From: Gemmatimonadota bacterium
Lineage (GTDB): Bacteria; Gemmatimonadota; Gemmatimonadetes; Palauibacterales; Palauibacteraceae
Assembly (NCBI GenBank): GCA_039586095.1
Contig: JBDHLB010000007.1
Location: 3,941 to 67,940, forward strand
DNA: 64,000 bases
Direction of reading: 5' to 3'
Below are positions 30,666-33,876 of the stretch, one piece after another (position 1 is the stretch's first letter; every line of letters starts with the position of its first letter). Position numbers and translations under genes: made by a program. Under the pieces are notes generated by a model, which did not search any database, was not told where the DNA came from, and saw only the letters and a program-made list of their open reading frames with translations.

Positions 30666-32612
30666 TTGGGAGCTGGAGGTCAAGAGCCGGGACCCAGAAT
30701 GGGCAAGAAAGCAGTAGAACGCACGACCGATCCCGACGAGCTGCGGCACTTCACCCAGCGACTGCTGGCCGACGTCCGAGCTCTGGAGAGCATGCTCGAC
30801 TCGGGTCTCATCGAGTCGGGTGTTCGACGGATCGGTGCCGAGCAGGAGATGTTCCTGGTCGATCAGAGCTGGCGGCCGGCACCGATCTCTCCCGAGGTGC
30901 TTCGCCGGATCGACGATCGTCGAGTGACGACCGAGCTGGGCGCCTTCAACCTCGAAATCAACATCGACCCGCTGCGCTTTACGGGCACCTGCCTGAGCGA
31001 GCTCGAGCGTGAGCTTCTGGAGATGCTCGGCATGGTGCGCGAGGCAGCCCTGCGCTGTGGCGCCGAGGTCGTACTGGCGGGAATTCTGCCCTCGCTGTGG
31101 AAGTCGGATCTCGACCTCGACAACATGACACCGATGGATCGGTACTACGCGCTCAACGAGGCGATGAACCGGATGCGGGGTGGGGCCTACAAGCTATATA
31201 TCAAAGGCGTCGACGAGCTGCGTGTCGAACACGATTCCGTGATGCTCGAGGCGTGCAACACGAGCTTCCAGGCACACTTCCAGACGGGTCCTTCCGAGTT
31301 CGCGAAGCTGTACAACATTTCGCTCGTGGCCACCGCTCCGGTGCTCTCGGTCGCGGCGAACTCCCCGCTGTTGTTCGGCAAGCGTCTCTGGCACGAGACA
31401 CGGATCGCCCTCTTCCAGCAGTCGATCGACACGCGGGCGGCCGGACCGGATCTGCGTGAATCCTACCCGCGCGTGAGTTTCGGGGCGGAGTGGGTGAACG
31501 ACTCGGTGTTGGATATCTATCGACGCGACATCGCGCGCTTCAAGGTTTTGTTGAGCGGCGAGGAGTGGGAAGACCCTCAGCAGGTGCTCGCGGGTGGAGA
31601 CGTTCCACGTCTACGGGCGTTGCAGCTCTTCAACAGCACGGTGTACCGGTGGAATCGCGCCTGCTACGGGGTCAGCGATGGCGTGGCCCACCTTCGAATC
31701 GAGAACCGGGTCCTGCCGTCCGGCCCGACACCTGTGGATGAGGTGGCCAACGCGGCGTTCTGGTTCGGACTCGTTTCGGGCTTGCTCGAACAGTACGAAG
31801 ACATACGCAACGTGATTCGCTTCGAAGATGCGAAAGGCAACTTTCACGCGGCGGCCCGACTCGGACTCAGCGCGCCGTTCGTCTGGCTCGAGGGACGAGA
31901 GTGGGTCGCGCGTGACCTGGTCCTCGAGGAATTGGTCGATCTGGCCCGTGTCGGCCTCTCGTGCGCTGGCATCGACGGGGGTGACATCGATCGCTATCTG
32001 GGCATCATCGAAGAGCGCGCCGTTGCCCGTCAGAACGGTGCGAACTGGATGCTCGGCTCGCTCGAAGCACTCCGCGAACGGGGGAGTCAGGAAGAGCGCC
32101 TCCGGGCACTGACCGCTGCGATCTCCCATCGCCAGAGGCGGAACCGCCCCGTCCATCAGTGGTCGCCTGCGGAGCTCGAGGAAGGTGGTGGCTGGAAGCC
32201 GAGCCATCTACGGGTCGAGCAGTACATGACGACCGACCTCGTCACGGCACACGAGGATGATCCGGTGGAGCTGGTGGCTAACCTGATGGACTGGCATCAC
32301 ATTCGGCACGTGCCGGTCGAGGATCGGGACCGTCACCTGGCCGGACTCGTGACCCGCCGAACTCTCCTTCGCTTTCTGGCCAGCGACGAGGGGCGACAGG
32401 CGCCCGAGCCCGTGCCCGTCTCTCGCGTCATGCAACGCAGCCTGATCACGATCAACCCGGAAACTCCGACGCTGGAAGCGATCGACATCATGCGTCGCAA
32501 CCGCATCTCATCGATTCCCGTCGTGCGGGAAGGACGCTTGGTCGGTCTGGTCACCGAGCGCGACTTCATGGAGATCGCCCGACAGCTTTTGGAGAAAGGG
32601 CTGAGTGAATAG
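30666..32612 (+). CDS. GCS2-family carboxylate-amine ligase (YbdK-like amidoligase) fused to a C-terminal CBS-domain pair
   Basis: The N-terminal ~420 aa carry GCS2 hallmarks (RRIGAEQEMFLVD aligns with the YbdK motif GIELEMQVVN). The C-terminal ~130 aa contain two CBS motifs. The start may be the internal MGKKAVER at 30699. Confidence 0.8.
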   Translation: MGAGGQEPGPRMGKKAVERTTDPDELRHFTQRLLADVRALESMLDSGLIESGVRRIGAEQEMFLVDQSWRPAPISPEVLRRIDDRRVTTELGAFNLEINIDPLRFTGTCLSELERELLEMLGMVREAALRCGAEVVLAGILPSLWKSDLDLDNMTPMDRYYALNEAMNRMRGGAYKLYIKGVDELRVEHDSVMLEACNTSFQAHFQTGPSEFAKLYNISLVATAPVLSVAANSPLLFGKRLWHETRIALFQQSIDTRAAGPDLRESYPRVSFGAEWVNDSVLDIYRRDIARFKVLLSGEEWEDPQQVLAGGDVPRLRALQLFNSTVYRWNRACYGVSDGVAHLRIENRVLPSGPTPVDEVANAAFWFGLVSGLLEQYEDIRNVIRFEDAKGNFHAAARLGLSAPFVWLEGREWVARDLVLEELVDLARVGLSCAGIDGGDIDRYLGIIEERAVARQNGANWMLGSLEALRERGSQEERLRALTAAISHRQRRNRPVHQWSPAELEEGGGWKPSHLRVEQYMTTDLVTAHEDDPVELVANLMDWHHIRHVPVEDRDRHLAGLVTRRTLLRFLASDEGRQAPEPVPVSRVMQRSLITINPETPTLEAIDIMRRNRISSIPVVREGRLVGLVTERDFMEIARQLLEKGLSE

Positions 32613-33876
32613 CGGGATTCCGGGGACCTCCGGCAGCGGGGCTGTGACCGGCCGGCCGATCGAGGCGGAGGCACCGGAGAGCCGGCTGCTGGGGCGTCAG
32701 CGTGGGGAGCGGCCAGGGCCCATGCTACTGTGCGTGGCCGGCCTGCACGGAAACGAGCCCGCGGGCGTCCATGCACTTCAGCGAGTGATTTCCGCGCTCG
32801 AGGCACGTCCGGTCCCACTTGTCGGAGACCTCGTGGCGCTGGCTGGCAATCTGACGGCGCTGACGGCCGGTCGTCGATTCCTCGACGAAGATCTCAACCG
32901 GATCTGGCAGCCGGAGCGTGTCCGCGCGCTGCGTGGTTCCGAGTCCCCGCAGGCGGGGGGAGGAACACTCGCAGAGAAGGCGCCGTCTGCGGAGGGACCT
33001 TCGGGGGCTGCCGCTGGCGTCGAGGCGCGCGAGCAGGCCGAGCTCCTGCACGCCGTGGACGAAGCTCTGGCATCGGCGAGAGGGCCCGTGTATGTGCTCG
33101 ATCTGCACACGACGTCCGCGGAGAGTCCCCCGTTCGTCACCCTCGGCGACACGCTCACCAACCGGGCGCTGGCCCGCCAGTTTACGATTCCGATCATCCT
33201 GGGTCTGGAAGAGCAGTTGGACGGTGCTCTGCTGTCCTACCTGGACCGGCGTGGCCTGGTAGGCCTCGGCGTCGAGGGCGGGAGCCACACGTGCTCGCAG
33301 TCGGTGGACGCGCTGGAAGCCGTGCTGTGGATCGCGCTGGTGGTTCACGGCCATGTGCAGCCGAGCGACGTGCCCGGATTGGATGCGTACTACGAACTCC
33401 TCCGGGGCGCGACCCGGCACCTCCCGCCCGTCATGGAGGTGCGGTACCGCCACGAGGTCAGGCCGAACGACGATTTCGCGATGGACGCCGGATTCGAGAA
33501 CTTCCAGCCCGTGCAAGAGGGAGCCGTTGTGGCGCGAGATCGAACCGGTCCGGTCCTCGCTCCCGAGAGCGGGCGGATGTTTCTGCCGTTGTATCAGGAG
33601 CTGGGTGACGACGGCTACTTCATCGTGCGCAGAGTGCGCACGATCTGGTTACAGATCTCCGCCGTGTTGCGTCGTCTGGGTCTGGCCGGTATTGCCCCGC
33701 TGCTTCCCGGCGTCGATCGACTGCCCACGCGTGACGACGCGCTCGTACTGCGCCCCTGGGCGGCTCGTGACTCCGTCATCGGTGTCCTGCACCTCCTGGG
33801 ATATCGGAAGCGTGTGCGGGATCACGTCGTGTACATGATCCGCCGGAAGGACAAATCGGGTGGGTACGCCGGCTAG
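32605..33876 (+). CDS. succinylglutamate desuccinylase/aspartoacylase (AstE/AspA) family zinc hydrolase
   Basis: HGNEPAG zinc-binding motif about 47 aa from the start, then an HTTS-type second zinc site (LDLHTTSAE). It overlaps the upstream gene by 8 bp. Confidence 0.75.
   Translation: MNSGIPGTSGSGAVTGRPIEAEAPESRLLGRQRGERPGPMLLCVAGLHGNEPAGVHALQRVISALEARPVPLVGDLVALAGNLTALTAGRRFLDEDLNRIWQPERVRALRGSESPQAGGGTLAEKAPSAEGPSGAAAGVEAREQAELLHAVDEALASARGPVYVLDLHTTSAESPPFVTLGDTLTNRALARQFTIPIILGLEEQLDGALLSYLDRRGLVGLGVEGGSHTCSQSVDALEAVLWIALVVHGHVQPSDVPGLDAYYELLRGATRHLPPVMEVRYRHEVRPNDDFAMDAGFENFQPVQEGAVVARDRTGPVLAPESGRMFLPLYQELGDDGYFIVRRVRTIWLQISAVLRRLGLAGIAPLLPGVDRLPTRDDALVLRPWAARDSVIGVLHLLGYRKRVRDHVVYMIRRKDKSGGYAG

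Follow-up and report, generated by a model that had tools for sequence, protein, structure and literature searches.

What is the function of a ligase gene that runs, with an overlap of a few nucleotides, into a gene for a hydrolase of the class that might undo the ligase reaction? This question is raised by positions 30666-33876 of the stretch of DNA analyzed here (the window), which comprises 64,000 nucleotides of contig JBDHLB010000007.1 of a Gemmatimonadota bacterium (assembly GCA_039586095.1, contig positions 3,941 to 67,940) and has a G+C content of ~66%. Gene 1 (30699..32612, + strand) encodes a 637-amino-acid (aa) protein in which a ligase domain of the GCS2 family, related in fold to glutamate-cysteine ligases (GCL), is fused to a C-terminal pair of CBS motifs. 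Gene 2 (32605..33876, + strand) encodes a 423-aa zinc amidohydrolase of the AstE/AspA superfamily. Both domain assignments had been made in a first-pass annotation of the sequence, and they are borne out by Pfam searches and Foldseek comparisons for the ligase and its CBS pair, and by the Pfam match, the fold and the zinc ligands for the hydrolase. We find that the two genes represent a widespread variant of a known theme, an amide ligase accompanied by its cognate amidohydrolase. In this variant, a divergent ligase of the GCL fold, usually with putative regulation by CBS motifs, is combined with a distinct subfamily of AstE/AspA enzymes.

Conservation of the gene pair

The association of the two genes extends to at least six phyla. 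A homologue of gene 2 (33-48% identity) is encoded downstream of gene 1, on the same strand, in 37 out of 80 species genomes; in 35 of these, the two genes are immediately adjacent, and in the remaining two, both from Rhodohalobacter, a single gene lies between them. Starting from gene 2, gene 1 was found directly upstream in 48 of the 63 informative metagenome loci, that is, those with enough sequence upstream of gene 2, and several contigs that are truncated in this region begin with the C-terminus of gene 1. The gene order is constant and the spacing is tight: an overlapping start codon for gene 2 is available in 58 out of 85 pairs (mostly at -4, as ATGA or GTGA, but also at -8 and -1), and the gaps in the other 27 mostly measure 0-30 nt. 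In the called genes of three Gemmatimonadota relatives (loci L161-L163), the overlap is 4 bp. All-against-all clustering of the neighboring open reading frames (ORFs) from 81 loci yielded no third gene conserved with the pair; the lineage-specific neighbors that recur, including genes for an SRAP peptidase, a nitroreductase, an alanine dehydrogenase-like protein, an aminotransferase and a tryptophan dioxygenase-like protein, were rejected as synteny. On a neighbor-joining tree, adjacency follows lineages, with the pair present in Gemmatimonadota, Planctomycetota, part of Acidobacteriota, Nannocystaceae and Bacteroidota. Cultured carriers include Nannocystis exedens DSM 71 and Agaribacillus aureus BMA12. 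Thus, the pair is co-conserved in other genomes, on which the first-pass annotation had made its proposal depend, and it also occurs as natural ligase-hydrolase fusions (see below). The functional link between gene 1 and gene 2 is, accordingly, stronger than originally proposed.

In the window, the end of gene 1 overlaps the start of gene 2 by 8 bp (GTGAATAG, 32605..32612, + strand), as had been read in the first-pass annotation, with the GTG start codon of gene 2 located within the end of gene 1 (stop codon TAG, 32610-32612). The overlap holds only if GTG 32605 is the real start of gene 2. P0122, the homologue nearest to gene 2 (81% identity), has its start at the position aligned to GTG 32605, whereas the JGI gene call (P0121, 384 aa) starts at Met40, which corresponds to ATG 32722, and thereby drops an N-terminal beta strand with the conserved motif R-L-I-G-R..G..PGP. 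Given the aligned start of P0122 and the conserved strand upstream of ATG 32722, the overlapping start appears to be better supported than that of the JGI call. GTG 32644, 31 nt past the gene 1 stop codon, is a possible alternative start, with which the two genes would still be tightly packed.

Two loci have an expanded version of the arrangement. In Rhodohalobacter sulfatireducens WB101 (L040, 6001-11010), and likewise in L062, two ligase genes in tandem (651 aa and a 633-aa paralogue) precede the AstE-like gene. The 633-aa paralogue is a full-length ligase-CBS protein that shows 44% identity to the family consensus and retains all catalytic motifs. Such tandem ligases could form a hetero-oligomeric enzyme or perform two successive ligations.

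Ligase-hydrolase fusions and a CBS-less sister pair

In a number of relatives, the ligase and the hydrolase are parts of a single polypeptide. The rarer type is a ligase-CBS-AstE triple fusion, represented by P0261 (965 aa) and P0280 (915 aa, found in two independent assemblies). In other proteins, namely P0350 (827 aa, found in two samples), P0369 and P0378, the ligase is joined to the AstE-like domain and no CBS motif is recognized by Pfam. In P0384 (833 aa), Pfam detects GCS2 alone and the AstE-like part was identified by motif inspection (LLHGNEPSG ... DLNRC ... DLHNNTG). A search seeded with P0350 retrieved proteins of 817-844 aa that fall into at least ~95 distinct clusters at 90% identity; they contain GCS2 and AstE_AspA domains and share 43-92% identity. 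Fusions of this type are annotated from Gammaproteobacteria and Planctomycetota, and one of them is located on a 4.6-Mb contig. The number of clusters, their range of identity and the long contig indicate that the ligase-hydrolase fusion genuinely exists and is of old origin, rather than having been created during assembly. Over aa 24-342 of gene 2, the hydrolase domains of the fusions align as orthologues (33-39% identity); P0261, P0280 and P0378 stop at the equivalent of aa ~342 and have no C-terminal extension of the kind found in gene 2.

Separate genes also occur together in a clade of ligases without CBS motifs. On contigs L164-L166, the gene for a stand-alone 493-aa CBS-less ligase (P0349) overlaps by 4 bp the next gene downstream, which encodes a 343-aa AstE-like protein. 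No domain is shown for this protein in the stored annotation; it contains the LLHGNEPSG...NRC motifs, has a weak match to AstE_AspA (22.6 bits against a cut-off of 25, E 8.8e-5) and is aligned with the gene 2 family by hhalign with a probability of 76%. Since CBS-less ligases, too, are paired or fused with an AstE-like hydrolase, the partnership predates the gain or loss of the CBS module.

The ligase and its distribution

The reading frame of gene 1 is unbroken from 30666, where it opens with TTG, to 32612 (+ strand) and contains neither a stop codon nor a frameshift, which excludes the possibility, considered in the first-pass annotation, that such an interruption had been missed ahead of the CBS region. 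The N-termini of homologues (MG(E/K)K) are equivalent to ATG 30699, in agreement with a start at this codon and a length of 637 aa. The catalytic domain (aa 1-495; 30699..32183, + strand) belongs to the glutamine-synthetase/glutamate-cysteine-ligase fold, as judged from an alignment of 50 sequences and from Foldseek comparisons. The Pfam match to GCS2 (PF04107; 37.6 bits, cut-off 21) spans aa 46-242 and covers only positions 2-181 of the 291 in the model. The GhExE motif, a Mg2+/ATP-binding signature located in the first core strand that defines the carboxylate-amine ligases (PMC2588565), takes the form R-R-I-G46-A-E48-Q-E50 in gene 1, and G46, E48 and E50 are invariant among the 50 aligned homologues. 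Further invariant residues in the same alignment are E79/N84/E86/N88, H193/Q195 and W231-x-E233-T-R235, together with R317-W-x-R320 and R333-x-E335-x-R337, whose arginines are candidates for those that, near core strand 5 of carboxylate-amine ligases, stabilize phosphotransfer. Because the catalytic motifs are invariant in 50 homologues, the domain is under strong purifying selection, as befits an enzyme rather than a decayed domain.

The AlphaFold model of gene 1 has a predicted local distance difference test (pLDDT) score of 78.4. In Foldseek, the best match of aa 1-~490 is the plant (Brassica) GCL 2gwc (E 3.9e-10, TM-score to target 0.63, 16% identity); YbdK 1r8g (E 2.9e-9, TM-score to target 0.65-0.70), 1tt4 (YbdK) and the yeast GCL 3ig5 were also recovered. 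The first-pass annotation had referred to the domain as YbdK-type. The GCS2/GCL fold is upheld by these matches, but the label is too specific, considering that gene 1 shares 13-16% identity with YbdK and the plant GCL, a kinship at the level of the fold. Consistently, a profile of aa 1-495 retrieved chance matches only, and no GCL, from among the PDB sequences, and single-sequence and full-length profile searches for a solved structure of gene 1 returned CBS proteins only. The score against the NCBIfam glutamate-cysteine ligase model NF010043 is 24.8 bits at a cut-off of 409, which places gene 1 outside this equivalog.

The fusion of a ligase of this kind to a CBS pair had been regarded as uncommon; this proved to be wrong. 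The top 120 protein clusters for gene 1 (59-100% identity) all combine GCS2 with CBS and are 636-677 aa long, the one exception in length being a truncated entry of 539 aa (P0002). In a scan of one genome per GTDB species, relatives of gene 1 were found in at least 596 species genomes, from Gemmatimonadota, Acidobacteriota, Planctomycetota, Myxococcota, Rhodothermota/Balneolales, Bacteroidota, Gammaproteobacteria, Calditrichota and Binatia. When HMMER was run exhaustively with aa 1-495 as the query, 747 representatives at 50% identity were collected (E<=1e-30). Most of them are 600-665 aa long and include the CBS pair; CBS motifs are missing from a sister clade of 470-500 aa, and there are longer proteins as well. 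The 637-aa ligase-CBS architecture predominates in a large family that is uncharacterized and whose members go by the name 'glutamate-cysteine ligase family protein' in the databases. Full-text literature searches found no paper on the gene 1 family or on its pairing with an AstE-like hydrolase. The tree of gene 1 is star-like with phyla intermixed, for example, gammaproteobacterial sequences are nested among those of Planctomycetota; this mixing, along with the 50-60% identity across phyla, suggests that the module may have spread horizontally.

The CBS module

Pfam detects CBS twice in gene 1 (99.8 bits, aa ~505-625), and the C-terminus of the model superimposes on CBS-pair structures with a root-mean-square deviation of 1.4-3 A (Foldseek). 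The two motifs differ in their ribose-binding positions. In the first (CBS1, aa ~505-560; 32211..32378, + strand; Pfam and alignment), this position is degenerate (G-L-V-T-R-R-T), and in the second (CBS2, aa ~572-627; 32412..32579, + strand; Pfam, alignment and Foldseek), it is canonical (G616-L-V-T619-E620-R-D622). The difference is general in the 50-sequence alignment, in which the ribose-binding motif G-h-h-T-x-x-D is kept in CBS2 only and CBS1 has T or P at the position of the Asp. The nearest sequence matches of the module are CBS-pyrophosphatase models and AcuB, and the AcuB structure among these matches was crystallized with AMP, ADP, ATP and Ap4A. Regulation by energy charge or S-adenosylmethionine had been suggested in the first-pass annotation. 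The CBS2 motif, the kinship with CBS-pyrophosphatases and AcuB, and a rare fusion to a HIT domain lead us to speculate that the ligand might be an adenine (di)nucleotide rather than S-adenosylmethionine. The fusion in question (P0255, 800 aa, three cluster members) consists of the ligase-CBS protein followed by a C-terminal HIT domain with an intact histidine triad (H-M-H-V-V), and one member of the cluster has been named Ap4A HIT-family hydrolase/CBS protein by JGI. Another homologue of gene 1 (P0250, 786 aa) has an extended regulatory module, with at least three CBS motifs behind the ligase domain.

The hydrolase

In gene 2, the Pfam domain AstE_AspA_cat (PF24827) is matched with 60 bits (cut-off 25), over aa 37-106 only. 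The hydrolase core as a whole (aa 27-343; 32683..33633, + strand) was compared, by profile alignment, with human and rat aspartoacylase (ASPA). The structural model has a pLDDT of 86.6, with values below 50 at aa 114-133. Foldseek matches include AstE (2g9d, 1yw6 and 1yw4), 3cdx, DoeB/EutE 6twm and aspartoacylase (2gu2 and 2i3c), with E values between 1e-14 and 1e-11 for 2g9d, 1yw6, 3cdx, 6twm and 2gu2; aminoacylase 3 (3nh4/3nfz) and, at rank 28, CphZ (8ein) were also found, and MpaA and Csd4 are distant matches. In the profile alignment, the zinc ligands H48-G-N-E51 and D-L-H168 correspond to His21/Glu24 and His116 of ASPA; H168 is invariant, and H48 and E51 are at least 90% conserved among gene 2 homologues. 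R91 and N98-R99, all invariant, align to the carboxylate clamp of ASPA (Arg63/Asn70/Arg71; R..DLNR). Also invariant are E224, which by its position is the putative general base, and Y330 in the C-terminal beta domain.

Two regions set gene 2 apart from its characterized relatives. One is an insert of ~30 aa (aa ~104-135), which is variable, disordered and of low complexity. The other is a conserved, family-specific C-terminal extension of ~80 aa, in which W348, H396-L-L-G399 and R413-R414 are invariant; its part at aa ~344-413 (33634..33843, + strand) is modeled as two helices and beta hairpins. Gene 2 scores below the cut-offs of both the AstE model TIGR03242 (42.3 bits against 305.65) and the aspartoacylase model (34 against 180 bits), and neither ast genes nor ectoine-degradation genes are present near it in the window.

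Proposed function and alternative explanations

Both enzymes appear to be catalytically intact and are predicted to be active, on account of their invariant motifs and fold matches. Given that no other gene is conserved near the pair, we propose that gene 1 and gene 2 could constitute a self-contained, co-translated two-enzyme module dedicated to one small amide metabolite, a reading that we consider plausible, if somewhat short of probable. We infer the substrates, the bond acted upon, the role of the CBS pair and that of the gene 2 extension as follows. Gene 1 would use ATP to activate a carboxylate, by fold analogy most likely the gamma-carboxylate of glutamate, and then couple it to the amine of an amino acid, yielding an N-acyl, probably gamma-glutamyl, amino acid. 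The CBS pair would bind an adenosine-containing ligand at its one canonical site, in CBS2, and thereby gate the activity of the ligase. Gene 2, as a Zn-dependent amidohydrolase, would cleave the same amide bond that gene 1 forms, and the two enzymes would jointly set the size of the metabolite pool in a nucleotide-gated cycle of synthesis and cleavage. To our knowledge, all characterized AstE/AspA enzymes cleave N-acyl-L-amino acids, and the substrates of this class include succinyl-Glu, acetyl-Asp, acetyl-diaminobutyrate and beta-Asp-Arg. As the product expected of a GCL-like ligase falls into the same class, it would be the most likely substrate of gene 2. The C-terminal extension of gene 2 might serve to dock it onto gene 1, since the fusions, in which hydrolase and ligase are covalently linked, are precisely the forms that lack it. 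A more far-reaching version, which we regard as possible but on the unlikely side, is that an undescribed metabolite, such as a gamma-glutamyl dipeptide-type thiol, an osmolyte or a nitrogen store, might be shared by Gemmatimonadota, Planctomycetota, Acidobacteriota, Myxococcota and others, with its synthesis switched by an adenine (di)nucleotide via the CBS pair and the hydrolase docked on the ligase by its extension, as the non-covalent equivalent of the fusions.

Several observations weigh against a dedicated make-and-cleave module. In about half of the gene 1 genomes, gene 2 is missing within 6 kb, as is the case in Rhodothermales, Wenzhouxiangella, Pyrinomonadaceae, Thermoanaerobaculia and Polyangiaceae, and gene 2 occurs without gene 1 upstream in 15 of the 63 informative loci; in view of these cases, the ligase may work without this hydrolase, or its partner may be encoded elsewhere in the genome. 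Glutamate as the acyl donor is suggested only by fold-level kinship (13-16% identity), and the active-site loops of the ligase are in part poorly modeled (pLDDT <50 at aa 135-190 and 225-258). Furthermore, co-expression of a ligase and a hydrolase of its product risks an ATP-consuming futile cycle, which is harder to explain in the CBS-less fusions, where the proposed gate is missing. This last problem favors a sequential pathway, in which the hydrolase would deacylate an N-acetyl- or N-succinyl-amino acid, or an imported dipeptide, and the ligase would use the freed product, so that the two enzymes act on different bonds, for instance, in salvage or re-acylation. The constant gene order, a PTR2/MFS di/tripeptide transporter encoded a few genes upstream of the pair in some Gemmatimonadota relatives and the common CBS-less single-polypeptide fusions, which are easier to understand as a means of substrate channeling than as a futile cycle, would all fit such a pathway. 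However, the transporter is restricted to its lineage and not encoded in the window, no further pathway gene is conserved nearby, and antagonistic enzymes fused to each other do exist, as exemplified by the glutathionylspermidine synthetase/amidase discussed below. In addition, it is the ligase, not the hydrolase, that comes first in the operons and is N-terminal in the fusions, although this is a weak argument. We rate the sequential pathway as rather doubtful.

As a special case of the make-and-cleave module, with cysteine as the amine, gene 1 might be a true gamma-glutamylcysteine ligase that feeds a glutathione or gamma-Glu-Cys thiol pool, and gene 2 might degrade gamma-Glu-Cys or a thiol conjugate. 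The nearest structures are indeed the glutamate-cysteine ligases 2gwc and 3ig5 and YbdK, the database names point in the same direction, and S-conjugated N-acetylcysteines are deacetylated by aminoacylase 3, to which gene 2 is structurally related. Nevertheless, the low score against the NCBIfam model and the failure of the catalytic-domain profile to retrieve any GCL from the PDB, together with the lack of glutathione synthetase or other thiol genes in the neighborhood of the pair, make this identity improbable. The gene 1 family is also present in Gammaproteobacteria (Wenzhouxiangella and Thiohalophilus), which normally possess canonical GshA/GshB. Reversible tagging of proteins or peptides, in which the ligase would add an amino acid to, or join, a C-terminal or side-chain carboxylate and the M14-like hydrolase would remove it, in the manner of RimK/TTLL with carboxypeptidase-like deglutamylases or of PafA/Dop, is in our estimation very improbable. 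It is true that the ligase and the Pup ligase PafA are members of one superfamily (PMC2588565) and that the AstE/AspA fold is carboxypeptidase-like, with MpaA and Csd4 among the distant structural matches of gene 2. Yet, across 160 loci, the pair has no small ORF or target gene conserved beside it, neither a small tag gene nor proteasome genes, and hence no Pup/proteasome context, were detected near it, and the Arg/Asn clamp of gene 2 matches that of enzymes acting on free N-acyl amino acids. Finally, the absence of an adjacent gene 2 from about half of the gene 1 genomes could be taken to mean that the adjacency is mere synteny or an operon of convenience. This is hardly credible in light of the same order and orientation in at least six phyla with all other neighbors differing, the conserved start/stop overlaps and the CBS-less ligase clade with an AstE-like partner of its own, and it is effectively refuted by the at least ~95 clusters of fused proteins.

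Comparison with known systems

With YbdK (1r8g) and the plant-type GCLs (Brassica, 2gwc), gene 1 shares the fold, the GCS2 match and the GhExE signature, downstream of which acidic, His and Arg motifs are invariant among its homologues, and it would be expected to follow the same chemistry, formation of an acyl-phosphate and then of an amide. It differs from them in the size of the catalytic domain (~495 aa compared to ~370 aa in YbdK), in the C-terminal CBS pair and in its genetic tie to a Zn hydrolase, which YbdK and GCL lack. Similarly, gene 2 resembles AstE, AspA, DoeB and EutE in fold, Pfam match, Zn ligands and carboxylate clamp, as well as in the expected hydrolysis of N-acyl-L-amino acids, but departs from them in falling below the equivalog cut-offs, in its insert and C-terminal extension, and in having a ligase as partner. 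The tandem CBS (Bateman) module appended to a catalytic domain is a feature that gene 1 has in common with IMP dehydrogenase, CBS-pyrophosphatase and AcuB; in gene 1, however, it is joined to a ligase of the glutamine-synthetase/GCL fold, and only one of its two motifs retains the ribose-binding Asp.

The closest functional analogy to both the operon and the fused forms of gene 1 and gene 2 is provided by the Escherichia coli glutathionylspermidine synthetase/amidase (GspSA), in which a ligase and an amidase for the same bond reside in one polypeptide and their reciprocal regulation sets the pool. The GspSA domains belong to unrelated families, an ATP-grasp synthetase and a CHAP cysteine amidase, and are regulated by oxidation of the amidase cysteine, not through CBS motifs. 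PafA and Dop are another precedent for keeping together two enzymes of which one forms, and the other hydrolyzes, a given bond (PMC2588565). A third system involves a hydrolase that is itself related to gene 2: CphZ, an AstE/AspA-like enzyme annotated as 'M14 family metallopeptidase', is encoded next to the ATP-dependent cyanophycin synthetase and cleaves the beta-Asp-Arg isopeptide derived from the product of that synthetase (PMC9974463). The likeness consists in an AstE-like hydrolase beside an ATP-dependent amide-forming enzyme, and CphZ 8ein is among the structural matches of gene 2, although it ranks below AstE and DoeB. The cyanophycin synthetase, by contrast, combines ATP-grasp and Mur-ligase folds and makes a polymer, and no cyanophycin synthetase or cyanophycinase genes (cphA/cphB) were found in the window neighborhood or in related loci.

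Both superfamilies are well known, whereas this ligase family with its obligate-looking AstE-like partner has no characterized member, solved structure or curated family model, even though its carriers amount to at least ~600 species-level genomes of environmentally dominant, poorly studied phyla. The adjacency, the start/stop overlap, the CBS-less pair and the abundant fusions make for a sharply testable hypothesis, for which the cultured carriers and the fusion enzymes are convenient starting material. Knowledge of the product could bring to light a small molecule that is both new and widespread, together with a new example of direct nucleotide gating of an amide ligase. Were the product a dipeptide already known, for example gamma-Glu-Cys, the result would amount to no more than an improvement of annotation.

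Genomic neighborhood

The neighbors of the pair in the window are housekeeping genes, none of which accompanies it beyond Gemmatimonadota. Upstream, on the + strand, are genes for a GAF-GAF-GGDEF diguanylate cyclase (27414-28997) and a pterin-4a-carbinolamine dehydratase (Pterin_4a, 29106-29438), both syntenic in Gemmatimonadota relatives and unlinked to the pair elsewhere, as well as a DUF2207 gene and a GT4 glycosyltransferase gene; a gap of 110 bp separates gene 1 from the upstream genes. The GT4 glycosyltransferase gene was rejected as a member of the unit, being absent elsewhere and separated from gene 1 by three genes in close relatives. Those three extra genes, found in L161-L163 (~4400-7900, locus coordinates) and absent from the window, encode the PTR2/MFS di/tripeptide transporter, a protein with a weak Pfam ATPase match (PF06745) and a 63-87-aa ORF. 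Should dipeptides be handled by the module, the transporter might have a bearing on its function.

Downstream, on the - strand, an aminotransferase V gene is followed by menE, menA, menB, menD and menF and by genes for a TonB receptor, Lnt, a radical-SAM enzyme, LolA, FtsK and AccC. The menaquinone cluster (35039-41545, - strand), which comprises MenE-like (AMP-binding), MenA-like (UbiA-family), MenB-like (enoyl-CoA hydratase-fold), MenD-like (thiamine diphosphate-dependent) and MenF-like (chorismate-binding) genes, thus lies between the aminotransferase V gene and the block from the TonB receptor to FtsK, a region in which L161-L163 differ. The aminotransferase V gene is convergent with gene 2 and conserved in Gemmatimonadota only, and was not counted as part of the unit. 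Its stop codon (CTA 33873-33875 on the plus strand) overlaps that of gene 2 (TAG 33874-33876), which leaves no intergenic room for a terminator 3' of gene 2; in Gemmatimonadota relatives, the two genes converge with gaps of ~13-45 nt. A promoter and terminator scan gave one match of each kind, at or below the expectation from shuffled sequence, and was uninformative. No Rfam families or tRNAs were detected in the window, and neither the gene 1 nor the gene 2 protein matches any PADLOC defense-system model. A 595-aa ORF without a Pfam match (34706-36493, + strand) is located antisense to the aminotransferase and MenE-like genes and is most likely a spurious shadow ORF of the kind that arises at high G+C content.

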